Shown here: positions 24,807 through 64,000 of the stretch, one piece after another
Layout of the letters: every line of letters begins with the position of its first letter
Position numbering within the stretch: the first letter of the stretch is position 1
Source of the DNA: Candidatus Saccharimonadota bacterium
Lineage (GTDB): Bacteria > Patescibacteriota > Saccharimonadia > Saccharimonadales > AWTP1-31
Length of the DNA: 64,000 nt
NCBI GenBank assembly: GCA_003962975.1
Contig: RXKC01000007.1
Coordinates: 26,711-90,710, forward strand
Direction of reading: 5' to 3'
The notes under the pieces: generated by a model
Told to the model about the DNA's origin: nothing
Seen by the model: the letters and a program-made list of their open reading frames with translations, nothing else
The model's database searches: none
Made by a program: the position numbers and the translations under genes

Positions 24807-25751
24807 TTACTTGCTGGTCTTAAATTTGAGATATCGCCTAGTTGCGATAAGTGACGACAACGCGCCAATAAAAATACCTACGAGCAGTTGCAGAAGTAAG
24901 AAGAGCCAAAAATGGCGGGAAAAATATTGGTTTGAGAACTGAATATCGAGTAAGCCCAGGCTGCTAGCTTCGAAAGTCTTAGCAGAAATCGAGAATAGAC
25001 TACGTACAATAGTTATCGACACGAGGCCCGAAACAACACCGTACATAATGCTTTCGACAATAAATGGACCTCGAATAAAGTTAGTACTTGCGCCTAATAA
25101 GCGCATTATGGTCAACTCATCACGTCGGTTAAAGATTGCCATTTGAATAGTATTAAAGATGATCAGCATTGAGATAACAGCGAACACAATCACCCCAGCA
25201 ATGCCTGCGCGCTGAAAGAAGTTGGTTGCACTTGTAATTTTATCGATAGCCGCTTTGCGGTCACCAGAATATGATGTCTCGTCAGACTGCAATGCTTTGA
25301 TCTCAGGTTTTTCTAGGAATGTGCGAATACTTTCGATACGATTTGGGTCTTTAGGCCGAATTTGCAAACTAGCTGGCAGCGGATTCTCGGTTTGCGAAAT
25401 AGCCTGTAGCAGCTCTGGATTATTTGCGTTCTGCTGACGATATACTTTGAGAGCTTCGTCTTTAGTAACAAAGTTAACGTCTCGCACGTTTTCTAAGCCA
25501 CGTACCTGTGTTATCAGGCCATCTAATTGCTTGCTAGTGACTTCATCTTTAATGTAGACCGAAATATCAATGCGGTCAGTAATAGTCTGGATAGTATTTG
25601 CAAACGTTGCATTAGCGATAACCGAAAACAAGATAATTGTCAGGGTTATTACCATGACAGCCATAGCAGCAATCCCAAGCCATGCGTTACGAATAAAGTT
25701 CAGTATTCCGGTGCGCACGATACGGCGCATCATAATCAAGCCTCGCTTCAC
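24807..25751 (-). CDS. ftsX: Cell division permease FtsX
   Basis: 4-TM FtsX topology with a large extracellular loop. 4-nt overlap with ftsE. Confidence 0.8.
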   Translation of the reverse strand: MKRGLIMMRRIVRTGILNFIRNAWLGIAAMAVMVITLTIILFSVIANATFANTIQTITDRIDISVYIKDEVTSKQLDGLITQVRGLENVRDVNFVTKDEALKVYRQQNANNPELLQAISQTENPLPASLQIRPKDPNRIESIRTFLEKPEIKALQSDETSYSGDRKAAIDKITSATNFFQRAGIAGVIVFAVISMLIIFNTIQMAIFNRRDELTIMRLLGASTNFIRGPFIVESIMYGVVSGLVSITIVRSLFSISAKTFEASSLGLLDIQFSNQYFSRHFWLFLLLQLLVGIFIGALSSLIATRRYLKFKTSK

Positions 25752-26428
25752 GCGTGGTACTCCGCATTCGCCCTATCACTTACAACCGTTCCATCTTGGA
25801 TGGTTATCACTCGTCGTTTGAGTTTATTAACGATTTCTTGATTATGGGTAGTCAATAGTACAGTGGTTCCGAAGCGATTGATTTTTTCAAGTACACGTAT
25901 CACATCCCAAGCGTGTTTTGGGTCAAGGTTGCCGGTTGGCTCATCGGCAATAAGAATACGTGGCTGCCGCACGATAGCCCTGGCAATAGCAACACGTTGT
26001 CGTTCACCACCAGAGAGTTCTCTTGGCATGCGCTTCTCTTTACCCTTCAAACCAACGATATCTAAAACACGTGGAACAGTGTGGTCGATTTCTTTATTGC
26101 CCATACCGACGATCTCTAAGGCAAAGGCTACGTTTTCCCAAACAGTTTTATTTGGCAACAGCTTAAAATCTTGGAATACTACGCCAATTTTACGACGCAA
26201 CAGAGGTATTTCTTTATCTTTCAGAGTTTCGTAGTCGATGCCACCAACAATGATCTTGCCGCTGGTTGGCTTCTCTTCTCTGGTCAGGAGTTTAAGTAAG
26301 GTAGATTTGCCGGCACCACTGGGTCCGACAATAATAACAAATTCCTTTGGTTCGACATGAAGACTAATGCGTTCGAGCGCTGGTCCACTGCGATTATACT
26401 TCTTGGTTACCCTATCCAATAAAATCAT
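25748..26428 (-). CDS. ftsE: Cell division ATP-binding protein FtsE
   Basis: Walker A GPSGAGKST, ABC signature LSGGERQR, Walker B ILIADEPT. 226 aa. Confidence 0.85.
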   Translation of the reverse strand: MILLDRVTKKYNRSGPALERISLHVEPKEFVIIVGPSGAGKSTLLKLLTREEKPTSGKIIVGGIDYETLKDKEIPLLRRKIGVVFQDFKLLPNKTVWENVAFALEIVGMGNKEIDHTVPRVLDIVGLKGKEKRMPRELSGGERQRVAIARAIVRQPRILIADEPTGNLDPKHAWDVIRVLEKINRFGTTVLLTTHNQEIVNKLKRRVITIQDGTVVSDRANAEYHA

Positions 26429-35822: not shown

Positions 35823-36623
35823 CTACGGGCGCAGTGCACCTGCAAAAACCTGCCAAGCTAATGCTGACTTTGCTACTAGGCTCAATACCATATAGGTACG
35901 TTCGCCGTATAGATAGTTACTCCACTTGCCGGTCTTTTTGTACTGCAAGTACATATTGACTGCGAAACTACCGAAGAATACGAATAGGCTGCCGTAAATA
36001 AAGTAAACAAAGGTTGGGATACCCCCTGAACCGTAAACATTGGCACCAATAAAGTAAATGGCCAGCACAATCCACGGCACAATGCCTGCTAATGTACCGA
36101 CCCAGAATGGTAACCAGTCAACTTGTTTGTTGGTTTGATTCTTGAGCTCCATAACAAGACCGAGCAAGTTCATGACAAGCGTTAGTACAAACATCATCAG
36201 TAGCGATGAAAGGTCATAAACCCCAGTCAGGACACCGATAGCGACAATCATCGTGCTGGCGCTAAAGCCGTATTCAATCCACCGAAACTTGTTGATGCCC
36301 TTTTTGAGATCAGCTTCGTACGTTTTACGACCACGAGTCGCCACAACTATGTGAGCGATGGCTGACATAAAGAAAAAGGTTGCCACAAGATGAGCAAGGT
36401 TAACATTAAAGAGTACTTGCGCTGCTGGTGCCAGAACCGGACGCTCAGCTATTTTTGATGCGATGCTGTCTTGGGTTAGAAAACTGGTGGTAATTGGCCA
36501 GCTCACACCCTTACTCAGAATGAGCACCAAAATGCCCTGTACTGCGTGTAGTACGGCTAATCGCTTGTTCCATGTATTTAATGAGCTTGTTGAAATAGTT
36601 GGTGATTTTGTTGTAAGTCGCAT
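35823..36623 (-). CDS. Heliorhodopsin-like seven-TM retinal-binding protein
   Basis: 7 TM, 266 aa. The C-terminal helix SLVAKSALAWQVF carries the conserved Schiff-base Lys. The FRWIEYGFSAS counterion Glu helix and LQYKKTGKWSNYLYGER loop match, as recalled, the characterised heliorhodopsin 48C12. Confidence 0.7.
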   Translation of the reverse strand: MRLTTKSPTISTSSLNTWNKRLAVLHAVQGILVLILSKGVSWPITTSFLTQDSIASKIAERPVLAPAAQVLFNVNLAHLVATFFFMSAIAHIVVATRGRKTYEADLKKGINKFRWIEYGFSASTMIVAIGVLTGVYDLSSLLMMFVLTLVMNLLGLVMELKNQTNKQVDWLPFWVGTLAGIVPWIVLAIYFIGANVYGSGGIPTFVYFIYGSLFVFFGSFAVNMYLQYKKTGKWSNYLYGERTYMVLSLVAKSALAWQVFAGALRP

Positions 36624-38187: not shown

Positions 38188-39564
38188 CTATTCAGTTCTT
38201 AATGCTTCAATCGGATCCATTTTGGCAGCTTTACGGGCTGGTAGATATCCAGCCAGGATAGCAACAATCATTAATCCAACAATGAGCGCAGCTATTTGAG
38301 AAGGACGGAAAATAAGCAAACTGTTGCCCTCACCAAGGTCAAGCTTCTTGGTAATCCACGGGTTTAAGGGAATGCCGACCAGCAATGCTCCAGCGGATCC
38401 AATTGCTCCACCCAAGAAACCTATCCAACCGGCTTCAAGCATAAAGAGCCTGCGCAGATCACGTTTGCGCATACCCAATGCTTTCATGAGTCCGATTTCA
38501 CGAATACGCTCTAGAACACTAATGTACTGAGTGTTCACAATACCAAAGACGGATGCTATCACGGTAATGAGCCCGAAAACACCTACCAGTGCCTGTAGAA
38601 TATTCACAATTTGGGTGATCGACTGCTGAATTTCTTTGCTACTCATCGTGAAGTATTTCTTGGCTTTTAGATCAGCTTGAGCTGCATCAATACTTGCCTG
38701 CTTTTCACCATCTTTAACCCGCACATACACGTATGTGTATTTGTCATAACTGGGCGTACCCTCGGTAGTGTAATCATACATCTGCTTAGCGTCATTGGTT
38801 GATACCAGTACCGGTAGCGTTCCGAAGTTTATGCTTGTTGCAGCCTTTTTAGTAATCGCGGCAATCGTAAAGGTGCGCATTTGCGATTCAGGTTGTAGCG
38901 TACGCGGATCAACTCCGTTGCGAATGGCCGCCAGTACTTGCTCACCCCCTCCGTCTACAAATGGTTTTTGGATATTAATGCTGATTTTTTTACCAAGCGC
39001 ATCTTTATCACTCTTAAAACCGAGTGCCTTTACATAACCTTCTGGTAACATTACCTGATTGTCAGCGATGTCACCTGTTTTTGGTAACGTCCCAGCTGCC
39101 AGTTCTGGTTTTTGCGCCGGGTTATACGCGGTTGCGCTGAGAGTGAACCTCTTCTGGCCTTCACGAGTTATATATCGAGCTGCCAGCTGATAGTTCTCTC
39201 GGACTTCTTCGATATATGGTAAGCTCTTCAACTCGGTAATATCTTCTGGCGTAACCTGTTTAATCTGCAAACTAGAACCATCACCGCCAATGGCCATAGA
39301 TGTAACGGACTCATCGTATTCTTTGGGCTCGGTTGATGGCGCGCCAGTATTGCTCACTTCTTTGTCGCGTCCAACAATAAGTTCGGATGAGTCAAAGTTA
39401 CTCGTGACTAACCGATCGGTATACTCACGAATTCCGTTGCCGGCTGCTAACGTTATGGTTAATGTAAAGCCCCCGACTGCGATGGCGAGAGAAGTTAGAA
39501 CTGTTCGTAGTTTTGCGCTACGCAGACTGCGCCCACTACGGCGAATAGTATCTTGAATACGCAT
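38188..39564 (-). CDS. ABC transporter permease, FtsX/MacB-like with a large extracytoplasmic domain
   Basis: N-terminal TM helix, about 250-aa periplasmic domain, and a C-terminal 3-TM FtsX domain. Confidence 0.75.
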
Positions 39565-40274
39565 TACTTCTTTGCCCTCGCTACAGTCTTACGAGTTGGT
39601 TTTGTAACCAAACTGTCTATCTTGCCGTCCTTTAGCCTCACTTGTATCTTACAGCGAGCTGCTAGTTCATCATCATGTGTCACAATCACGAGTGTACTGC
39701 CAAGCGTTTTATTAATACTAAATAGTAAATCAATAATCTTATCGCCTGTTGCACTATCGAGGTTACCGGTTGGCTCATCAGCAAAGATAAGTTTTGGACG
39801 ATTAACGATCGCCCTGGCGATTGCTAGTCGCTGCTTTTGGCCTCCAGATAGGTTGCGAGCTCGACTGTTTGCTTTCTCACTCAAATCTACGGCCGCTAAA
39901 GCATCCATGACTCGTTGCTTGCGGTCGCGCCCACGAACCTCCGCAATTTCAAGCGGCAACATAACGTTCTGATAGCATGTCTGGTTACCTTCTACGAAGA
40001 AAGCCTGAAAGATAAAGCTCATTTGCTCAGCCCGAAACGCATCGATCTGTTTGGGCTTCATTTGCTGCAGTACCGTACCGTCAACCGTTACATGTCCGTC
40101 ACTCGGTGTATCTAGACCACTCATGATGTGCATGAGGGTTGATTTACCCGATCCACTTTTACCAATAATAGCCACTGTGGCGCCATCTTTAATGCTTAGG
40201 CTAATGTCGTCGAGCGCTGTAAAAGCACTGTCCTTCTTGCCATACGTTTTCGTAATGTTTGCTACCTCAATCAT
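39564..40274 (-). CDS. ABC transporter ATP-binding protein (MacB/LolD-like)
   Basis: Walker [10 protein letters not shown], signature LSGGQKQR, Walker B LIFADEPT. 1-nt overlap with the permease. Confidence 0.85.
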
Positions 40275-53718: not shown

Positions 53719-54435
53719 ATGGACGATGAATCGCAAGGCCCAAAACCCGTAATTGTTGATGCTACTGCACCTGTCGAGCAGCCCGACACACAGCAATCAG
53801 CAGACCCTAATGCGACCACTAACAGTGTCGAAACTGAGGCGCCTGCCCCTGAAAGTGAAGAAGAACAAAACAAAAAAGAAGGTATCAAAGGTATTTTTTC
53901 TACGATCGCAATTCTTGTGATTGCACCGCTGATTGCCCTCTCTCTTACTCTGTTTGTTTTTCAATCATATGAGGTTGATGGCCCAAGTATGGAAACAACT
54001 CTCCAGGATAATGATCGTCTTATTGTCTATAAACTGCCAAAAACCGTAGCTCGTCTGACAGGACGTGATTACTTACCAAAACGCACCGATATTATTATAT
54101 TCACTCGTAACGAAGGGATGGGTTCACGACAGCTCGTCAAAAGAGTCATCGCCCTCCCCGGTGAACGCGTGGTACTGAAAAACGGTGTAATGACCGTGTA
54201 CAATAATAAAAAACCAGAGGGCTTCCAGCCTGATAAGGTCTTCCCGTACGGTAAGGTCATAACTACGACTGCTGGCGATGTTGATGTAGTTGTACCTGAA
54301 GATAGCGTGTTTGTATGTGGGGACAACCGTCCTCAATCACTCGATTCAAGAGCGTTTGGACCAGTCCCACTCAAAGATATAACGGGTAAGCTCTCGCTAC
54401 GTGTATATCCATTCGGTAATGGACAAAAGTTTTAG
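53719..54435 (+). CDS. lepB: Signal peptidase I
   Basis: GPSMETTL (Ser), KRVIALPGE (Lys box) and GDNRPQSLDSR motifs. Confidence 0.85.
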   Translation: MDDESQGPKPVIVDATAPVEQPDTQQSADPNATTNSVETEAPAPESEEEQNKKEGIKGIFSTIAILVIAPLIALSLTLFVFQSYEVDGPSMETTLQDNDRLIVYKLPKTVARLTGRDYLPKRTDIIIFTRNEGMGSRQLVKRVIALPGERVVLKNGVMTVYNNKKPEGFQPDKVFPYGKVITTTAGDVDVVVPEDSVFVCGDNRPQSLDSRAFGPVPLKDITGKLSLRVYPFGNGQKF

Positions 54436-54461
54436 CCAGCCAACCATTGCCTGACTGACTA

Positions 54462-55316
54462 CTATTTTGATATCAGTTTGAGAATGCGTTTTAGATCAGC
54501 GTCACTCTTGAACACAATTTCCAACTTACCGCCCTTGGCCATTCGTTTTAATGTCACCGGTGTTTTGAGTGTATCTGATAATTTTTTGGTCTGAGGAGAC
54601 GTCGTTGCTACTCGTTTAGTAGCTGAACCTACGCTGGTCGCCCCTTCCCGGTGTGCAACCACATAGCGTTCTGCCTGACGCACTGACCAGCCATTCTTAA
54701 TAATCTGCTCTAGCAACTTGAGTTGATCTTTTTCGTCGGCAAGTGCCAGCACAGTACGAGCATGACCTTCGGTTATCTTTTTATCACGCAGTGCCTGCTT
54801 GACTGCTTCGGGCAGCTGCATCAAGCGAGCAGTATTGCGAACCGTTGTAGATGCTTTACCCAAGCGCAAACCAATTACATCGAAATCAAGATTAAACTGC
54901 TCGTTCAAGGCTACAATTGAAGCCGCTTGCTCAAGTGGCGATAAGTTGACACGCTGGACGTTCTCAACAAGGGCCAACTCGACTCGCTGCAACTGCTCTA
55001 GCGTACGCACCACTACTGGTACAGATGTCAGCCCGGCCAGTTTTGCTGCCCGCCAACGCCGTTCGCCAGCAATAATATAGTACTTGTCACCATTTGGCGT
55101 AACCACCAGGGGTTGCAGAATGCCGTGCTCTTTTATAGATTGCGCTAAGCCTTTGAGTTCTTCTTCATCGAAGTTAACACGGGGTTGTTCTGGATTTGCA
55201 AGCAGCTCGGTTACTGCTATTTTTTGTAGACGTTCACCTTCGTTAACAAGCAGAGATGTGTCGAAGTTTTGTGGAATAAGAGAATCAAAGCCCCTACCTA
55301 ATTTATTTGCCGACAC
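54462..55316 (-). CDS. parB: Chromosome partitioning protein ParB/Spo0J
   Basis: GERRWRAAKLAGL ParB box and an HTH. 284 aa. Confidence 0.85.
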   Translation of the reverse strand: MSANKLGRGFDSLIPQNFDTSLLVNEGERLQKIAVTELLANPEQPRVNFDEEELKGLAQSIKEHGILQPLVVTPNGDKYYIIAGERRWRAAKLAGLTSVPVVVRTLEQLQRVELALVENVQRVNLSPLEQAASIVALNEQFNLDFDVIGLRLGKASTTVRNTARLMQLPEAVKQALRDKKITEGHARTVLALADEKDQLKLLEQIIKNGWSVRQAERYVVAHREGATSVGSATKRVATTSPQTKKLSDTLKTPVTLKRMAKGGKLEIVFKSDADLKRILKLISK

Positions 55317-56193
55317 GATCTTCTACCTCCTTAGCTAAACTCTTGTAACTTCTCGCACCTTTTGACCATTTATCATGCTCCATGATCGATTTACCAAAAC
55401 TTGGTGCTTCTGCAAGTCGAACATTACGCGGCACAATAGTTTTCATAAGTTTATCTTTGAAGTGTTTCTTGAGCTCATCCACAACCTGGTCTGATAAAGA
55501 AGTGCGGCTGTCGTGCATGGTTACGACAATGCCTAGTAACTCGAGCTGTGGGTTCAAACCCTGTCTTACTCGTTGCATAACATCGAGCAACTGGCCCAGA
55601 CCTTCAAGCGCATAATACTCTGCCTGCACTGGCACAAGTATATAATTTGCCGCTGACATGGCGTTGATGCTCAAGAGCCCCAAAGAAGGCGGACAATCAA
55701 TAAGTATGTAATCATACTCGAGGTGAGCAATTGCATTCCTGAGCTTGTATTCGCGCTGCAGTTCTCCAGCCAAATCAACCTCTGCAGCAGCTAATTGTGC
55801 ATTGGCAGGCAAGATATGAAGCCCTGCCACAGCAGTGTCCTTAATTATCTGTTCACTCTTAGCATTGCCAAACAACGTATCGTACACCGTGCTGTCTAAA
55901 GTCTGCTTATCGATCCCTACTCCGCTTGTAGCATTACCCTGTGGATCGAGGTCAACCAACAAAACTTTTTTTCCTCGTTTGGCTAAGTAGGCGCCAATAT
56001 TAATAGTAGACGTAGTTTTACCTACGCCACCCTTCTGGTTGAGTACCGCTATGATTCTACCCATATGAATGTATCTATTTAAACATAAGCTTCTGCTATG
56101 TACCACCCCAGTTCCGCTGCAATGCCTATTCGCGGCGAAGGGCGTCGATAGGGCTAATCTTTTGCGCTCGGCGCGCTGGGAAGTAAGCCACAA
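55303..56193 (-). CDS. parA: Chromosome partitioning ATPase ParA/Soj (likely start at internal Met, 56064)
   Basis: Deviant Walker A NQKGGVGKTT. The called N-terminal 43 aa overlap the ABC permease gene, so an internal start is preferred. Confidence 0.85.
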   Translation of the reverse strand: MWLTSQRAERKRLALSTPFAANRHCSGTGVVHSRSLCLNRYIHMGRIIAVLNQKGGVGKTTSTINIGAYLAKRGKKVLLVDLDPQGNATSGVGIDKQTLDSTVYDTLFGNAKSEQIIKDTAVAGLHILPANAQLAAAEVDLAGELQREYKLRNAIAHLEYDYILIDCPPSLGLLSINAMSAANYILVPVQAEYYALEGLGQLLDVMQRVRQGLNPQLELLGIVVTMHDSRTSLSDQVVDELKKHFKDKLMKTIVPRNVRLAEAPSFGKSIMEHDKWSKGARSYKSLAKEVEDRVGK

Positions 56194-57352
56194 TTAAACC
56201 AACGATCAGCATGAAAGCTGTCAGCGCCGCTATGAGCCAAAGTGGCAGCGAGAATATTTCGAAGCGCTCGTTTACTCTTTGGGCAGCATTCTGATTAACT
56301 AGTTCGTTAATGACTCGACTAGCAATGAATGAACCAAACATACCAATGAATACACCGATAAGGGACAAGAGGACTGCTTCAATCATAAACAAGCGGCGCA
56401 TGTCACGTTTACGACCACCTAGGGTTATCATCAAACCAATCTCCTTTGTTCTTTCGAGCAAAGATATAGTCAAAGTGTTAAACATACCGAGAATAGCTAC
56501 GATAATACCAATACCACCGAATCCTGCCAGAATAATATTAAAGAACTTAAATAACTGATTTATTTGTTCAAGGGTATCAATGGGAGAGTTGGTTAGAAAG
56601 CCATTGGACTCAATTTGTTTTCGAAGTGTAGGAATATTACTGGTGTCATCAATGGTTACTTTAACTTGTTTATAAGTCGGAACACCCGCAACATCAAAGA
56701 CTGCACTTGGCACAAATATCTCGTTATTCTGGTCAGAATCGATGACGCCAACAACTTTAAAGGTATCCCGTAATTCATCCGCTTCACTGTCTGCCAATTG
56801 CAACGGCACCACTATCTCGATCTCTTGGCCCACAGCCTTCTTCGGGTCAGTTACACCAATGCCGCGCAAAGCCGACAGGCTAACAAGCGCAGATCGATTA
56901 TCGTTTTTTTGCAACAGCCGTCCTTCGAGTAAATTAAGTGTCGTTAAATCCTGGAAAGTCTGATCGACGCCGTAAATAACCGAATCGATTCCCCCGCCCT
57001 TAAGGGCCACACTCGAGGGGAACGAGTACTCTACGCCCACCTTTTCAATGTGCGGGAACCGACGAATTTTATTAACTGCCGTATCGTTGAGCTTGATAAT
57101 TTTAGAGTTTGGACTGGTTATTTCGATGGTCTTGATCGACTTATCGCCTATCACGTTATCGGTGACCAGCTTCTGTAAACCAAGCCCGAAAGAAATGAGG
57201 AAGGCAATCGATCCGATCCCCACCACAATGCCTGCGATTGTCAGGAATGATCTAAGCTTCTTGCTCGTTAAGTTCCGCCAGGCCATGTAAAACAGGGTGT
57301 TCAGATGAATCTTTGGCCGTTTTTTAATAGTATCGTCTTCTTGATTACGCAT
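56126..57352 (-). CDS. ABC transporter permease, FtsX/MacB-like
   Basis: N-terminal TM helix, extracytoplasmic domain, C-terminal FtsX 3-TM bundle. 8-nt overlap with the ATPase gene. Confidence 0.75.
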   Translation of the reverse strand: MRNQEDDTIKKRPKIHLNTLFYMAWRNLTSKKLRSFLTIAGIVVGIGSIAFLISFGLGLQKLVTDNVIGDKSIKTIEITSPNSKIIKLNDTAVNKIRRFPHIEKVGVEYSFPSSVALKGGGIDSVIYGVDQTFQDLTTLNLLEGRLLQKNDNRSALVSLSALRGIGVTDPKKAVGQEIEIVVPLQLADSEADELRDTFKVVGVIDSDQNNEIFVPSAVFDVAGVPTYKQVKVTIDDTSNIPTLRKQIESNGFLTNSPIDTLEQINQLFKFFNIILAGFGGIGIIVAILGMFNTLTISLLERTKEIGLMITLGGRKRDMRRLFMIEAVLLSLIGVFIGMFGSFIASRVINELVNQNAAQRVNERFEIFSLPLWLIAALTAFMLIVGLIVAYFPARRAQKISPIDALRRE

Positions 57353-58127
57353 CTTGTTTCTTCCTTGCTAGATGGTCTATACGAGCCTTCATCTGATTAA
57401 GCAATGTTTCCGTAGTCTCGCTAATATCGCCACTTTGCATCTGCTGGCATTGCCCGTCCTGGATGTGCACCAGTTGGTCTGCAAGTGGCAAATACTCCAT
57501 ATTATGTGTCACCAGAATGATCGTACGATTAAGGTCTCGCTGATAGCTTTCAAGCAGAGCCATAATCATGTCACCATTCTTGCTATCCAGACTTCCCGTT
57601 GGTTCGTCGGTAATGATTACCGATGGATCATTTACAATAGCGCGAGCCATGGCAATACGCTGTTGCTCACCACCAGATAGCATGAGTGGACTTTTCTTGG
57701 CAAAAGGTGCCATGTCTACTCGTTGCAGCGCGTCCATAGCTTTTTTGGCCGCTGCAGCACGGTTATAGCCCAAAAAGAACAGTGGAATCGACACATTTTC
57801 GATGACATTAAGGCTATTCACCCAATAGTTCTGCTGGTAGACCACCCCTATACTTTTTGCCCTAAAGTAGGCTAGTTGTTCGGCGGAATACTTGTATATA
57901 TCTCTACCGTCGTATGTAACCTGCCCACCACTGGGAACCTGGATACCACTCAGGACATTGAGAAGGGTTGATTTACCCGACCCTGAAGGGCCATAGATAA
58001 TGTTGAAGGAGTTCTTTTTGATTGTGAAACTACTTGGATGAAGTACTTTGAGCATCTCTTCTCCAATCTTGAAAGATTGCTCCAGGTTGCTAACACGAAT
58101 AAGAATTTGCCCACCCTCGTCTTGCAT
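57345..58127 (-). CDS. ABC transporter ATP-binding protein (MacB-like)
   Basis: [24 protein letters not shown] motifs. 4-nt overlap with the 3' end of the giant surface-protein gene. Confidence 0.85.
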
Positions 58128-58129
58128 AC

Positions 58130-61100
58130 CTAAAGCCCAAATACCTTTCTCAGTGTGTTGAGTACTATGTTCAATACACTATCTGAGGCACGGCCGATAA
58201 TAGCAGCCTGCGGCTTGGTTGTTGAAGCGTTGTTTGATTTGTCTCGCGATACCGGCATGATGCTATAGACTCGGCTTGGCGGCAAGTCAGAAACAATAAC
58301 TAAGTGCTCGGTCGTAAGCTGAGCATCTTCGGCGGTACGATTGTTAAATACCGTAACTGCTGAACCTTCGGCGTAGGCTACTTGGCTTGTGGAAGGCTCA
58401 TCTGTCTTCCAGGAAACAACGATTTGTCCGCGGGCCTCTGCACCCGTACCACGAATAGTTGGCTCGATAACCACATCAAAGACATTCGGTGGACGAGTAT
58501 CTAGCGCTGTCTTGAAAACTTGACGATCTGATACAGCTAGGTTACCACTGGCGTCACGCCCCTGGGCGATTAAGAAGTACTCACTATTATCTTCAAGTCC
58601 ACGAATGACCATTTCATGCATGGTCTTTAGCTCCTGAGATTGAACAATCGTACCATCGGTGCCAACCTTGCCATATTGCACGATCGAATTTGTCGGGATA
58701 TTAGTCGTCCAGGTAACTTGCTGAGTACTAGTCGGCTCACCAATAAGTGGCTGAAAACGCAGATTACTAATTGCTGGTCGTGGTGGAGTGGTGAAAGAGA
58801 ATATACTGCTCTGATATTTACCGCCTTCTGTATCTTGCATGACTAAGCGGTACAGATACTTCGTGCCGTCGTCCAGGCCATTCAACTCAAGTTCATAGGT
58901 CGATTCGCTGAGGGCAGTATTTATTGATTTTACGCCGCCAAATGAATCGGTTCGCCCGTACTGCAACTCAACTTTTACGGCGTCCTTGACAGTAAACTGC
59001 AGTGTTACGGTCGATAAGCTGACAGAAAGTGTGTCCACCTCTTTCAATACAGGAGCGGGCGCAGTCGTAAAGCTATATTCTTGACTTACTCCGGTGTTAC
59101 CGTCGGTGTCGGTCCAACGTGCCTGGAAGTAATAGGTTGTCCCGGCAGCTAAGTTGTCTAGGTCCAGCTTATGAGCTGTCACTTGTGATGAATTACCAAT
59201 TTCTGACGGACTGTATTCACCGCTAGTCACTCCAATGGCAATCTTACTGTCGGAAGCTCTATCTGTAGACCACGTGATTGTTGCCCGCTTAGTAGTGACA
59301 CCACTAACTACTGGTTCACTGGTCATTGCAGCAGGTTCCGTAAACTTACCCGTTGGAATCATCGAGGCAACTCCCGTAAATGCTCCGCAGTTATTGGCGC
59401 TATCGCAGGCTCGCACCTTATAGTAATACTCTACCTGGCTTAAGCCACCGTCGACAAAAGATGTGCCGCTACTAGATCCAACTTGAGTAAAGTTACTGTT
59501 ATCAGTGGAACGGAAAACTCGGTAGCTGCTTACACCAGCGCCGACATTTGCCGGTGCATCCCATGTTACCGCCAACCTCCAGTTGCTGGTTGCCTTCACA
59601 GACACATCAGCTGCATCTATATTAGTTGGTATTCCTGGCGCCGGGGTGTTAGCTGTAAACGTTACGCTCGCATAGCTCGAATAGTTAATTGCTCCAAAGT
59701 CATCTTTACCTACGACATAGAGAGTGTTCGACCCAGGCTGGGTTGCATACGGTCCATCGGGCAAACTAGTTACTCCAGCAGCCGTAAAGTTACAGTTACT
59801 TACATTAGGCAGGGTATTAACGACGTAACAGTATGTCAGCCTATCTGGTTGGCCTGTGGTCGTATTAAAGGTAGCCGGTGCATCCCAAGAAAATTCGAAT
59901 TCGTTAGTCGTATTAGTGGCAGGAGTTGCTGTAAGGTTCTGCGGCTCACTCGGTGCACCAGTCGTATTAATACGCAGTACTGCCGTGACGTAGCTATTTG
60001 TCACGTTACCGGCGGCATCCCATGTTCTAAAGTAGACAGTATTGATGCCGTCGACAAGATTATCAAAGTCCGGCGGGTCAACGGTTGTATAGTTGCCGTC
60101 ACCGACCGTCAGCAGGTCATTGATATCGCCGGCGCCAGTATGATCTTCGCCGTACCATGCAGTGTTGCCAATTCGATATTGCAAGCCCGCTACTCCAGAG
60201 TTTGCATCACTAGCTGCATCTCCCCCAGTGGTTGGCCAAGTTATTGTTGCTGTTTTGGTATTTATAAATCCAGAAGGTGCTGATACATACCCCGGGTTAG
60301 CTGGTGCTGTATTGTCGAATCTAAACTGGAATTGTTCCGAGGTCGAAGCAACATTACCAGCTTTATCTATCGCCTTGATATTGAGGTAGTACGGCGTGTT
60401 TGAACTGGACAGTGCGGTTCCTAGCAGTCCAGACGTTGCCAAATCGAGGCTCGTACCAGACACGGCAAACTGACACGCCGAATTGGTATCTATCGGGCTG
60501 GCACCGAGTAATCCTTTGCTCGTTTCAGGATCATCGCTAGAAGAGTGGCCAAGGTATAGACAATATCCCAAGATGCCTGCCCCGCTATCAGTTCCAGCCG
60601 TCCAGGTAAAGTATGGCGAGGCTCCGTTGGTCCATGCATTTGAATTTAAACTAGTCCCACCATTCGACTTGAAGGCTAGAATGTTCGAAGCATTAGTATC
60701 CGGCCCATTATTATCTGCATTAGCGCCCAGTTCAACTGAATTTACAGTAACCTGCTGATTGCCATCCCCTTTAAGCAATGCCTGCCACATTAAACCGTCA
60801 AAGGTCACCGGAAAATCACCTATGTTTGCATTGATCACGGAAGCAGCATTAGCGTCTGACACACTACTTGATAGGACCCAAGCTGATCCATTCCAGTACT
60901 TCCAGGTATTGCCTTCGTTATCACTCAGGCGATAGGTTATTGCTCCGCCGTTAGTGATCTCACTAGTAGTGAAGCTGTCCCAGTCTTGCACCCCAGACTT
61001 GCGCACAGCCGACGACAACACAACACCTTGGTGTGTATTTGCATACGGCCTACTATTAAAACTCGTCCGGGCTGTATTACTTATCCTAATTTCATCTAAA

Positions 61101-63496
61101 GTTCCCGCAAAGTAGTCCGCCCCATCTCCTGCAACCTTACTGCCGTATCCTCGACCGATCAGTAGCGGGAGGTCATTATCTACGGTACTCGTGCTCACTG
61201 TTGCCGTTGTTTCTAGGGTGCCATCAATGTAGATTTTTACCGTCGCGCCATCCAGCACTACCGCATAGTGGTGCCAATTTGTATCAAAAGAAGTGGTCGT
61301 CGACTCAGCATAGCCATTTGCACCGTATGAATATACTAACGCGTCTTGGTTCTGGCTAAGGCCAGTACCGGCATATAGTTTCCCCTTATAACTAGAAAGT
61401 GTATAAATTGCCTCAATAGTTGCGCCCCAGCTACTGTTTATTCCGTCTCCTGCTATCTGTGTCCATGTACTGCCATTGTACGTATATATATCCCCCGCAC
61501 CTGTATTGCTAAAGCCTGCTTGGCGCATTCCCGCGACCAGCACACCGTTGTATACCGTAATCGCAGATACATGGGAATAGCTTCCATTCTGCCAACTAGA
61601 ATTGAGACCACCCCCACTAATCTGAGTCCAGGTACTACCATCCCACTTCCAGACATTTGCTAACAGATTTGTGGCATCGCTATAGCCGACATACAGATCA
61701 TCGTTGTATACACCCATAGAGTTCACCTCGACAGTGTTAGCCACTGTTGGCCAACTGCCGTTTACGCCATCACCGGCAATCTTCGTCCAAGACGAACCGT
61801 TATAACACCACACATGAGCAGCTCCACCATACCGGCCGTTAGATGCGCATAACTGATTACGAAATACTGTTAAAGCACCGACATCTGTAGCAGCCCAGGT
61901 ACCGGCTATCCCTGTTCCACCAATCCTCGTCCAACTTGTATCGTTATACTCCCAAACCCATGCCGTATTGCTGGTTCCACCCATACCGGCATACAGTTTG
62001 CCGTTGTACACTGCTAATGAGCTTAGTTGCAGCACGTTATTCCAGCTAGTATTCACACCATCACCACCAATCTTAGTCCAAACAGTACCATTCCAGCTGT
62101 ATACATCTGAATCGCTTCCGTTACCAGAGCCGAGTCCAACTATAAGAGCCCCCTTATAAGAGGTCATTGATGCGACAGTTTCGTACGTGTTGCCGGGCCA
62201 GGCACCGTTACTATTCAACCCAAAACCACCGCCAATCATGCGGGCCGTGTTCCCATCCCACTCATAAACATAAGCGTTATTTGCACCACCTAGGACGCCA
62301 ACATATAGCTTGCCGTTGTGGACGGTGCTTGATACCACAGCCGCTGATCCAAAATCCGACCAGCTATTATTGAGGTAACTCCCTCCGATTAGCGTCCAAG
62401 CATTTGAACCATTCCATGTATGTATTGCCGGATACACGTTTGCGTTTGCAGATGGCGCAGCAAAAAGCGTTGATCCAACAAACTGAAGGCCAAAAACCTT
62501 GTCATATGCTGCAGCCGTCCAGCTATTTGCCACTGCTGTACCGCCAATCCTTGTCCAAGAGCTACCATTCCAACGCCACAACTCACCACCTGACATATAC
62601 GTACCTACATATAGGTTAGTTCCGTCATCAGTCATACTTAGTATCTGAGTTGCTGTAAACGAGCTGTTCACGCCATCGCCGCCAACTTTAGTCCAAGTAC
62701 CACCGTTCCAACGCCATACCTCACCATCACCTGGTGCCGTTAAGCCTAATCCAGCATAAAGCATCCCGTCAACATGACGCAGCGTCATAACTGATTCATA
62801 GTCAGTACCCCAGCCACTATTCAAGCCATCGCCACCGATTTGCGCCCAAGCACTACCGTTCCAACGCCATACATCAGCATCACCAGCACTTGTACCAAGT
62901 CCTGCATACAAGTTTGTACCGTCGGATGCCAAAGACAATACCTGCTCAAACGTACTCGCTGCCCAGCTACCATTCAAACCATCGCCGCCAACTTGCGTCC
63001 ATGACGTACCGCCGTTATGTCGCCACAAGTCACCGCCCGCTACCGCGTCACCCATACCGGCATATAAGACACCGTTGTGAAAAGCAAGAGATCGAACCGT
63101 ATGATACGCATTGGAGTAACCCAGACCATCCCCGGCAATCTTAGTCCAGCTTGTGCAGTTTGTAGTAGTATTACAGCTCCAAACTTCTCCATCACCAGCG
63201 TTATTGCCTAACCCGGCATAGAGAATATTATTGTGCCAAGTCATCGAGTATACGCCTTCGTACACTTGATCGGGCCAGCTACCGTTTACTCCATCGCCAC
63301 CGATCTTGTTCCAGGTAGTGCCGTTCCACTTCCAGACCTCTGCATCGCCCGCACTTACACCAAGCCCCGCATAGTAGTTAGTGCCGTCAGTTGCTGATGA
63401 ATCTACCTCATAGTGCCCAAACGACCAACTGCCGTTCGTATCACCACCCATCTGTTTGGTCCAGCTGTTATTGGTATTACTCTGGGCTTCGTACAC
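58130..63496 (-). CDS. Giant secreted multidomain protein (1788-aa portion): W/G-rich beta-propeller-like repeats, LamG-like lectin domain, multiple FN3-like domains
   Basis: At least 13 tandem repeats of the form YAGLG..GDGEVWRWNG..W..IGGDGVN.SW. A LamG domain (VKIYIDGTLETTA...FAGTLDEIRISN) and FN3-like segments (NLTATPATNT..FSWDAP; YRVFRSTDNSNF). It is in frame with the upstream signal-peptide ORF across one TGA. Confidence 0.8.
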   Translation of the reverse strand: MYEAQSNTNNSWTKQMGGDTNGSWSFGHYEVDSSATDGTNYYAGLGVSAGDAEVWKWNGTTWNKIGGDGVNGSWPDQVYEGVYSMTWHNNILYAGLGNNAGDGEVWSCNTTTNCTSWTKIAGDGLGYSNAYHTVRSLAFHNGVLYAGMGDAVAGGDLWRHNGGTSWTQVGGDGLNGSWAASTFEQVLSLASDGTNLYAGLGTSAGDADVWRWNGSAWAQIGGDGLNSGWGTDYESVMTLRHVDGMLYAGLGLTAPGDGEVWRWNGGTWTKVGGDGVNSSFTATQILSMTDDGTNLYVGTYMSGGELWRWNGSSWTRIGGTAVANSWTAAAYDKVFGLQFVGSTLFAAPSANANVYPAIHTWNGSNAWTLIGGSYLNNSWSDFGSAAVVSSTVHNGKLYVGVLGGANNAYVYEWDGNTARMIGGGFGLNSNGAWPGNTYETVASMTSYKGALIVGLGSGNGSDSDVYSWNGTVWTKIGGDGVNTSWNNVLQLSSLAVYNGKLYAGMGGTSNTAWVWEYNDTSWTRIGGTGIAGTWAATDVGALTVFRNQLCASNGRYGGAAHVWCYNGSSWTKIAGDGVNGSWPTVANTVEVNSMGVYNDDLYVGYSDATNLLANVWKWDGSTWTQISGGGLNSSWQNGSYSHVSAITVYNGVLVAGMRQAGFSNTGAGDIYTYNGSTWTQIAGDGINSSWGATIEAIYTLSSYKGKLYAGTGLSQNQDALVYSYGANGYAESTTTSFDTNWHHYAVVLDGATVKIYIDGTLETTATVSTSTVDNDLPLLIGRGYGSKVAGDGADYFAGTLDEIRISNTARTSFNSRPYANTHQGVVLSSAVRKSGVQDWDSFTTSEITNGGAITYRLSDNEGNTWKYWNGSAWVLSSSVSDANAASVINANIGDFPVTFDGLMWQALLKGDGNQQVTVNSVELGANADNNGPDTNASNILAFKSNGGTSLNSNAWTNGASPYFTWTAGTDSGAGILGYCLYLGHSSSDDPETSKGLLGASPIDTNSACQFAVSGTSLDLATSGLLGTALSSSNTPYYLNIKAIDKAGNVASTSEQFQFRFDNTAPANPGYVSAPSGFINTKTATITWPTTGGDAASDANSGVAGLQYRIGNTAWYGEDHTGAGDINDLLTVGDGNYTTVDPPDFDNLVDGINTVYFRTWDAAGNVTNSYVTAVLRINTTGAPSEPQNLTATPATNTTNEFEFSWDAPATFNTTTGQPDRLTYCYVVNTLPNVSNCNFTAAGVTSLPDGPYATQPGSNTLYVVGKDDFGAINYSSYASVTFTANTPAPGIPTNIDAADVSVKATSNWRLAVTWDAPANVGAGVSSYRVFRSTDNSNFTQVGSSSGTSFVDGGLSQVEYYYKVRACDSANNCGAFTGVASMIPTGKFTEPAAMTSEPVVSGVTTKRATITWSTDRASDSKIAIGVTSGEYSPSEIGNSSQVTAHKLDLDNLAAGTTYYFQARWTDTDGNTGVSQEYSFTTAPAPVLKEVDTLSVSLSTVTLQFTVKDAVKVELQYGRTDSFGGVKSINTALSESTYELELNGLDDGTKYLYRLVMQDTEGGKYQSSIFSFTTPPRPAISNLRFQPLIGEPTSTQQVTWTTNIPTNSIVQYGKVGTDGTIVQSQELKTMHEMVIRGLEDNSEYFLIAQGRDASGNLAVSDRQVFKTALDTRPPNVFDVVIEPTIRGTGAEARGQIVVSWKTDEPSTSQVAYAEGSAVTVFNNRTAEDAQLTTEHLVIVSDLPPSRVYSIMPVSRDKSNNASTTKPQAAIIGRASDSVLNIVLNTLRKVFGL
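60400..63450 (-). repeat. Coding tandem-repeat array (about 50-75-aa period) inside the giant gene
   Basis: Reiterated W-x-W-N-G / I-G-G-D-G-x-N-x-S-W peptide motif seen throughout the first ~1000 residues. Confidence 0.55.
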
Positions 63497-63547
63497 TAAT
63501 TTTCCCGAGGACCGGTCTAGATTAACTCGATGTGAACCCTTATCTAG

Positions 63548-63973
63548 TCAGGTTTGGGAGGTACTCGAGTTATTATTGAAAGTACTACTAGGCTTAAACC
63601 AGCCTTCAATAGTCTGTTGGCTACCAAGAGATAACGAGCCAGAATCTTGAACAGATACAGACTGGCTCGTACCATTTAATGTCAGTCCGTTGTTCATTCT
63701 TCCTGAACCCCAACTAGGACTGCCCACAGTTGAGCCGTTATTAGCATTAGAGGAACTATCAGTTACCGTCGTACCGCTCGTACTGTTCATGTGCGCCAAA
63801 AAACCTGTTAGTGAATCACTGCTGTATTCTTGGGCTTTCAGGCGAGCACTATTGCCGTTAAATTCAACCCCAGCGTCAAGTGCATACTCACTCTGACTGC
63901 TAAAGTCCCAGGTATTTGTGAGGTCTGCTGCCAAAGCAATCCGAACGGTACTAAACACCATCAGCCCAACCAC
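63548..63973 (-). CDS. Signal-peptide-bearing N-terminal segment of the giant protein gene, separated from the body by a single in-frame TGA; may extend beyond the window edge
   Basis: MVGLMVFSTVRIALAADL signal peptide, Ser/Thr/Asn-rich. Same reading frame as 58130..63496 (coordinate difference divisible by 3). No stop between 63973 and the window end at 64000. Confidence 0.6.
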   Translation of the reverse strand: MVGLMVFSTVRIALAADLTNTWDFSSQSEYALDAGVEFNGNSARLKAQEYSSDSLTGFLAHMNSTSGTTVTDSSSNANNGSTVGSPSWGSGRMNNGLTLNGTSQSVSVQDSGSLSLGSQQTIEGWFKPSSTFNNNSSTSQT

Positions 63974-64000
63974 CAGTAAGTAAGATCCAAGGGTTCCATA

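Follow-up and report, generated by a model that had tools for sequence, protein, structure and literature searches.

A giant surface protein gene linked to a type VII ABC system in Saccharibacteria, carried here as a probable nonsense allele

Here we describe a three-gene locus on the minus strand of a 64,000-nucleotide (nt) stretch of DNA (the window) from a Candidatus Saccharibacteria metagenome-assembled genome (MAG), in which a gene for a giant multidomain protein is followed directly by genes for an ATP-binding cassette (ABC) ATPase and a MacB/FtsX-type permease. Judged from its sequence, the locus is a copy of a conserved cell-envelope unit of mostly environmental Saccharibacteria (Saccharimonadales). 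It probably encodes a three-gene envelope module that gives a type VII ABC system a giant extracellular partner and is present here as a nonsense allele. Coordinates are window positions unless a locus label (L001 and the like) is given.

The giant gene and the ABC pair are conserved in order

The three genes lie head to tail: the giant open reading frame (ORF) at 58130..63496 (1788 amino acids (aa)), the ATPase gene at 57345..58127 (260 aa) and the permease gene at 56126..57352 (408 aa). At the first junction (58125..58132, minus strand), the TAG stop of the giant gene (58132..58130) is separated by GT from the ATG of the ATPase gene (58127..58125), a 2-nt spacer where a preliminary description of the window had read a 4-nt overlap (58127/58130). 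At the second junction, the 5′ end of the permease gene shares 8 nt with the ATPase gene (ATGCGTAA, 57345..57352), as that description had reported.

Homologues of the giant protein are 2,000–2,090 aa long and cover the query in full (100%) at 52–62% identity; their sources are Saccharibacteria/Saccharimonadales MAGs. When one genome per species was scanned, 386 genomes proved to contain a relative, and the genome-locus figures given here refer to the best 80 of these 386 relatives, nearly all of which are labelled Saccharibacteria or Patescibacteria. In nearly all of the 80 loci with enough contig, the giant gene is followed on its own strand by the ATPase gene and then by the permease gene. 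Measured in 81 loci, the gap from stop to start has a median of +1 nt and in most cases stays within −4 to +3 nt, and the junction takes the forms TAGNATG, TAANNATG and ATGA. The neighbours of the trio vary from genome to genome and include L21 with parAB (as here), DUF5661 with lexA, and PNPOx with hsp20/dnaK.

The linkage was also tested in reverse, by searching metagenome contigs with an alignment of the permease. Among the 60 loci with enough upstream sequence, the 3′ end of a giant gene lay upstream of the permease-seeded pair in 59. Taking genomes and metagenomes together, the giant gene is directly upstream of the pair in ~139 of 141 loci. The dedicated operon proposed in the preliminary description is thus borne out by a gene order that is kept in nearly all of the best 80 genome loci and in 59 of 60 metagenome loci, and MacB-like pairs do flank giant genes in related genomes, with differing genes on either side. 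The two most divergent genome loci (L083 and L085), whose giant protein has 45% identity, encode a longer permease (689 aa in L083, 10283..12352), which suggests an enlarged extracytoplasmic part; the Gammaproteobacteria label of L085 is probably a binning error.

The window scan found no terminator-like site between the giant and ATPase genes, where the 2-nt spacer leaves no room for one, and the first such site on the minus strand comes after parB. Promoter-like sites were no commoner in the scan than in shuffled sequence, so that a match such as the one at 58225..58197 may or may not be an internal promoter. On the 3′ side of the permease gene lie parA (55303..56064) and then parB (54462..55316). 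A terminator-like hairpin (54433..54461, minus strand) directly follows parB and is the first downstream of the giant gene on this strand, and the 61-nt gap before parA holds a promoter-like site (56083..56054). The module and parAB could be read in the source genome as one unit or as two.

The copy in this genome is interrupted by an in-frame TGA

The giant ORF given above is the larger part of an interrupted gene. The translation of 58127..64000 contains a single in-frame stop, TGA at 63550..63548, which divides the gene into the following parts:

63551..64000, minus strand: 5′ part of the giant gene within the window, encoding the first LamG strands and most of the only hydrophobic segment; no stop interrupts the frame up to the window edge
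63548..63550, minus strand: in-frame TGA, codon 212 of 2,017, in the context ACC TGA CTA GAT, inside the LamG domain
58130..63547, minus strand: rest of the giant gene (1,805 codons and TAG), open throughout and co-linear with the ~2,040-aa homologues

The span 56126..63973 given in the preliminary description has to be revised at two points: its frame crosses the TGA, and it does not end at 63973 but stays open to the window edge. The start codon lies ~183 nt beyond position 64000, at L001 9269 on an identical contig, from which the full gene of 2,017 codons was read. On that contig, a 211-codon ORF (L001 9269..9904) ends at the TGA. GenBank accordingly holds two separate hypothetical proteins for the Candidatus Saccharibacteria MAG, RTK94457.1 (211 aa) and RTK94456.1 (1788 aa).

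The stop recurs in other assemblies of this DNA. Contigs from ENA (ERZ27290348) and Logan (SRR7877879) match the window at 100% over 15,871 bp and carry the same TGA, which is present in the NCBI, ENA and Logan assemblies on at least eight contigs of differing lengths from different pipelines. TGA also ends eight other ORFs of the window, several of them in ATGA overlaps. TGA is a genuine stop in the source genome, and recoding under code 25 or code 4 was rejected on the strength of these eight ORFs and their ATGA overlaps. A structured read-through or selenocysteine signal was likewise rejected: RNA folding downstream of the TGA is unremarkable (z = +0.54), and the window holds zero tRNA genes.

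In 48 homologous loci, the residue at this site is I (31), V (15) or L (2), and the closest homologue has TTA, one substitution away from TGA. The stop is most likely a TTA-to-TGA nonsense mutation, as read from these alignments. Of 347 residues found unchanged across 24 homologues, the ORF behind the stop has retained 339 (97.7%), against a mean of 98.4% in a leave-one-out control. As this ORF shows no decay, the lesion is recent, polymorphic or tolerated through read-through, and the giant gene copy here is most likely a recent loss-of-function allele, or at best one expressed by rare read-through. Because the TGA parts the export segment from the remaining 1,805 codons, the module is probably inactive in this genome. 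Termination 5.4 kb upstream may also reduce the coupled translation of the ATPase.

A different account would make the TGA a mistake of base calling or assembly, common to all assemblies built on one set of reads, or a codon that is read through, with the full-length protein still being made. The 1,805 open codons with their 97.7% of family-invariant residues would fit this, as would the weak stop context UGA-C and the perfect identity of the NCBI, ENA and Logan contigs over 15.9 kb, which may stem from related read sets. We regard it as quite improbable, however, given that differing pipelines recovered the stop on at least eight contigs of varied length and that TGA works as an ordinary stop in the window. 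Homologues are aliphatic at the site, which argues against a conserved recoding site, and no stable RNA structure lies downstream. Furthermore, no intact version of this species' giant gene was found in a collection of 5.8 billion clusters.

Interruption as a trait of the whole family was rejected: among 74 informative loci, the only other cases are an assembly gap in L072, a frameshift in L033 and a contig edge in L030. Separately, one metagenome contig, Ga0226835_1000207 (L138 and L151), carries two module copies ~40 kb apart, and both of its giant genes appear as pairs of ORFs (978+1377 aa and 906+726 aa), which may be genuine splits or artefacts of assembly. In the source strain, off the window, a 387-aa DDE transposase (rve) is encoded between the L21 and giant genes (L001 7832..8995, minus strand), ~270 nt upstream of the giant start. 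It is missing from the otherwise syntenic locus L004 and has no second copy in the window, and the Logan contig ends close to it. At this locus, the strain thus has an insertion element as well as the probable nonsense mutation.

The giant protein is predicted to combine a nested LamG–propeller head with a long stalk

The domains below were located by Pfam searches and structure prediction.

61343..63406 (approximate), minus strand: 14 W/G-rich repeats of ~51 aa each, four-stranded blades nested inside LamG
61064..61375, minus strand: C-terminal half of the split LamG jelly-roll (PF13385; residues 708–811, profile 45–146)
58190..61063, minus strand: about nine beta-sandwich domains, one unclassified and then immunoglobulin (Ig)-like and FN3-like; the best conserved part
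58133..58189, minus strand: conserved C-terminal tail (AIIGRASDSVLNIVLNTLRKVFGL), a predicted amphipathic helix too weakly hydrophobic to span a membrane

From its sequence features, the giant protein is predicted to be a Sec-targeted surface protein. The first 61 residues of the full-length protein are strongly basic (15 K/R, 1 D/E), probably form a cytoplasmic tail and include a conserved W/H-rich motif. The idea that this motif is a shared N-terminal sorting motif was rejected, as it is limited to the giant proteins and does not occur in other ORFs of the window or its flanks. The sole hydrophobic segment follows at residues ~62–86 by hydropathy, and an (A/V/I)-x-A|AD site stands after it, in several homologues as well. 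The N-terminal segment may thus stay in place as a signal anchor, or it may be a signal peptide that is cleaved off. The preliminary description was right that the protein lacks LPXTG (no [LIVS]PX[TSA]G match in the motif scan, and no C-terminal hydrophobic segment by hydropathy), but in calling the retention mechanism unclear it had missed the N-terminal hydrophobic segment behind the basic 61-aa tail.

Pfam searches of the long ORF gave Laminin_G_3 (2.4e-15), Pur_ac_phosph_N (1.1e-17) and fn3 (3.5e-08), and PhoD_N also matched. The C-terminal half of Laminin_G_3 alone scores 57.4 bits against a Pfam gathering cut-off of 27.6. When the insert of ~710 residues was removed in silico and the stop read as Leu, the match extended over profile positions 1–146 of 151 (E 3.9e-21, 76.2 bits). 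The jelly-roll is therefore split by a nested insert, with the TGA inside the LamG domain. No NCBIfam model matched the giant protein to give it a name.

An AlphaFold2 model of the head (maf6df68d1971; first 1,070 residues after the stop, from a 48-sequence alignment) has a mean predicted local distance difference test score (pLDDT) of 86.5 and a predicted template modelling score of 0.71, and it contains 14 consecutive four-stranded units. The structure prediction thus supplies the repeat fold that the preliminary description had expected from at least 13 W/G-rich propeller-like repeats, and its LamG and FN3 assignments agree with Pfam, AlphaFold2 and Foldseek. The top Foldseek matches of the 14-blade region in PDB are tandem 7+7 propellers (E ~1e-14 to 5e-17, identity 10–15%), including glycoside hydrolase family 74 (GH74) enzymes (7kn8, 6p2l, 2ebs), Aip1 (1nr0), 2ymu, Elp2, UTP proteins and BT4663. 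On these models, the 14 blades most likely form two seven-bladed beta-propellers. At the sequence level, the propeller repeats had no match in Pfam, NCBIfam or PDB; a search for solved-structure relatives of the repeat region returned only LamG matches (4qvs, 8sl1), and recent amplification of the repeats at the DNA level was rejected after Tandem Repeats Finder reported nothing relevant. An exhaustive search with the repeat type gave 157 representatives at E <= 1e-30 and, at the looser limit of E <= 1e-3, 5,760. The repeat type is not confined to this architecture: larger proteins of 2,844 to 5,722 aa (P0128, P0139, P0147, P0153) carry it close to their C-termini.

The fold also allows for the double propeller being a GH74-like glycoside hydrolase that cuts a polysaccharide of the host wall or capsule, in which case the protein would be first an enzyme and not a binding fibre. 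The three top PDB matches are indeed GH74 xyloglucanases (7kn8, 6p2l and 2ebs; E 5e-17 to 2e-15), and a LamG lectin-type domain adjoins the double propeller. Non-enzymatic tandem propellers (Aip1, Elp2, the UTP proteins and 2ymu) score nearly as well, however, and identity is no higher than 13–15%; no Pfam or NCBIfam glycosidase model matches above threshold; and each blade repeats the conserved acidic residues (GDAEVW), which is what a structural motif would show. A hydrolase is accordingly a remote prospect.

Behind the head, an AlphaFold2 model of the last 785 residues (mbfb337cc0ea9; pLDDT 80.8) shows about seven beta-sandwich domains and then a low-confidence helix (767–783), and Foldseek matched it to generic FN3/Ig arrays only. 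Three cysteine pairs of the stalk are invariant (C979/C1008, C1223/C1235 and C1364/C1370), which fits an extracytoplasmic location. Identity to homologues is 40–50% in the head and 62–69% in the stalk and tail. The final ~24 residues are conserved to the very end (KVFG[LF]); the last codons of the giant gene overlap the likely ribosome-binding region of the ATPase gene, so constraints on protein and RNA may be mixed here.

The ATPase and permease are assigned to the type VII ABC systems

57345..58127, minus strand: ABC ATPase of the MacB/LolD/FtsE type, 260 aa, with intact Walker A, signature, Walker B and H-loop (VTHN)
56126..57352, minus strand: MacB/FtsX-type permease, 408 aa, with four membrane segments and a ~205-aa extracytoplasmic domain between the first and second transmembrane segments (TM1 and TM2)

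By domain content and topology, the pair is assigned to the type VII (MacB/FtsX/LolCDE-type) ABC systems. The ATPase matches ABC_tran (2.3e-30), and its top NCBIfam matches are LolD, FtsE and MacB, all far under their equivalog cut-offs. The permease matches MacB_PCD (6.7e-21, residues 35–249) and FtsX (6.9e-19, residues 278–401), with hydropathy windows at 33–60, 266–300, 318–349 and 364–394. Its nearest solved chains are YtrF (9o9x, 2.4e-25), MacB (5gko and 5lil, both aligned over the full length) and the pneumococcal MacB-like 5xu1.

The pair belongs to none of the named members of this class by NCBIfam score. The MacB model gave 87 bits for the permease and 161 bits for the ATPase against a cut-off of 966, and the loci compared hold no gene for a MacA (HlyD-type) adaptor within the three-gene module. 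The FtsX models gave 36–39 bits against 225–255 and FtsE gave 177 against 265; lolCE gave 55.6 bits against 362 and LolD 195 against 308. Three FtsX/MacB-type modules are present in the window, as the preliminary description had counted: ftsEX (24807..26428), a pair at 38188..40274 and the pair beside the giant gene (56126..58127).

The pair at 38188..40274 (minus strand) is of the MacB type, with a 236-aa ATPase and a 458-aa permease whose genes overlap by 1 nt. A class I lysyl-tRNA synthetase gene (lysS) lies directly upstream of it, and no large gene adjoins it. Between an RNA methyltransferase gene and this second pair, a 266-aa ORF (35823..36623, minus strand) encodes a full-length heliorhodopsin (Pfam PF18761, E 4e-91, profile 1–242 of 242).

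In place of an envelope system with a giant partner, the pair beside the giant gene could be an ordinary MacB-type pump for efflux or immunity (for an antimicrobial peptide, a lipid or a toxin) that shares only a promoter with the giant gene and whose products do not interact with it. The ATPase and permease are generic and without special domains, the pair beside lysS stands alone, and one locus (L139) has the pair without the giant gene, all of which would suit a pump. Against this, the pairing has held in ~139 of 141 loci through 45–75% sequence divergence and in varied surroundings, the stop–start junction is fixed to within a few nucleotides, and genes of unrelated function seldom keep their order and spacing so strictly. 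We therefore consider the simple pump unlikely.

Proposed working of the module

Type VII ABC systems drive extracytoplasmic partners by mechanotransmission and do not transfer cargo across their own membrane (PMC5985334, PMC7668044, PMC12646458). For the module described here, we propose that the three genes would be transcribed together and that ribosomes completing the giant gene would go straight on to translate the ATPase. The giant protein would be exported by its own N-terminal segment, and the ABC pair, called an exporter in the preliminary description, would not pump it across the membrane. By analogy with EnvC, MacA, LolA and TesA, ATP hydrolysis may instead act on the giant protein from the membrane, to hold, position, release or reshape it. 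The more variable LamG–propeller head would bind glycans or the surface of another cell, and the Ig/FN3-like sandwiches would form the stalk. Two layouts can be envisaged. In the first, the head would sit at the membrane on an N-terminal anchor; in the second, the signal peptide would be cleaved, leaving the head distal and the conserved C-terminal helix docked at the ABC system. The conservation gradient along the protein (40–50% in the head, 62–69% in the stalk and tail) fits the second layout better, without proving it.

A bolder version of this scheme would make the MacB-type pair the ATP-driven base of a 2,000-residue fibre, which deploys, retracts, releases or reshapes a host-binding LamG–propeller head through the C-terminal helix or the N-terminal segment. 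We put this forward as a speculative possibility. Such a structure, if real, would represent a new class of ABC-driven apparatus for adhesion or contact in episymbionts, with the largest known type VII ABC partner.

Several observations weigh against an envelope module with a giant extracellular partner, or against parts of it. First, conserved gene order argues for functional linkage and not for a mechanism, and it is on gene order that the putative physical link between the ABC pair and the giant protein is based. Second, L139 (Ga0163144_10050727), the sole exception among the 60 metagenome loci, has an ABC pair without a giant gene: a permease relative (55% identity) and an ATPase are encoded there, with minus-strand genes upstream instead. 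Third, the giant family appears to be absent from the cultivated oral epibiont Southlakia epibionticum, whose annotation table contains no PF13385 (Laminin_G_3) or PF16656 (Pur_ac_phosph_N) match and lists L21 followed directly by parA and parB. This apparent absence marks the module as a lineage-restricted one and not a general requirement for epibiosis. Fourth, the N-terminal segment may be a cleaved signal peptide, so that its role in retention is only putative, and some of the conservation seen in the last codons may come from the site where ribosomes would bind for the ATPase gene. Last, the 1,805 intact codons after the TGA also fit a polymorphic stop, read-through or an error shared by assemblies of the same reads.

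Even so, a large conserved surface protein locked in an operon with a type VII ABC system across hundreds of environmental species is a candidate surface machine. Beyond type IV pili, to our knowledge, little is understood of how Saccharibacteria and other Patescibacteria recognise and hold their hosts. Full-text searches of the literature turned up neither the giant family nor its pairing with a MacB-type system, and the module is apparently undescribed so far. Each newly characterised type VII ABC system has brought a different partner and job, most recently YbbAP–TesA (PMC12646458), and a 2,000-residue partner would lengthen that list. The natural nonsense allele, for its part, marks a population that lives, or recently lived, without the full-length protein. 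The weight of these points is limited by a function that is only inferred, by the broken copy in this genome and by the apparent absence of the family from S. epibionticum.

Comparison with known systems

The module resembles the type VII systems that have a partner (FtsEX with EnvC, PcsB, CwlO or RipC; MacAB; LolCDE–LolA; YbbAP–TesA) in its separate LolD/FtsE-like ATPase, in its four-helix permease with a large extracytoplasmic domain between TM1 and TM2 (MacB_PCD plus FtsX) and in the tight operon with a secreted or membrane-anchored protein. It differs in the partner: those known serve as a small coiled-coil activator, as an adaptor, as a chaperone or as a hydrolase, whereas the putative partner here is a multidomain protein of ~2,000 residues. 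It also falls far under the NCBIfam cut-offs for FtsEX, LolC/E and MacB, and a genuine ftsEX is found elsewhere in the window.

Among solved structures, the best sequence match is YtrF of Bacillus subtilis YtrEF (9o9x, E 2.4e-25), over the FtsX half only (residues 204–408). YtrEF comes from a monoderm, has a large extracellular domain and has been tied to the cell envelope and not to classical transport (PMC8060467). The ytr operon, however, encodes nothing like the giant surface protein, and what YtrEF itself does is not settled.

The predicted head is similar in fold to the GH74 xyloglucanases and other tandem seven-bladed propellers (Foldseek E ~1e-16). The likeness is one of fold only, at 13–15% identity and with no family-level sequence match, and the predicted propellers here are nested in a LamG domain.

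Very large surface proteins of Patescibacteria have been proposed as host-contact factors (PMC13059738, PMC11809585). With giant modular adhesins, the protein described here shares an N-terminal export signal, a lectin/propeller head, a long Ig/FN3 stalk and a predicted surface location, but LPXTG, S-layer homology, RTX and type I secretion features are all missing from it. The protein likewise stands apart from type I RTX/LapA-like systems in having an N-terminal export segment, no RTX match in Pfam and a permease of the FtsX/MacB type. Whereas the giants of Patescibacterium danicum have no full-length homologues (PMC11809585), this protein is unusually conserved, at 50–60% identity over 2,000 aa in hundreds of species and, unlike other giant adhesins, is paired nearly always with a MacB-type ABC system.

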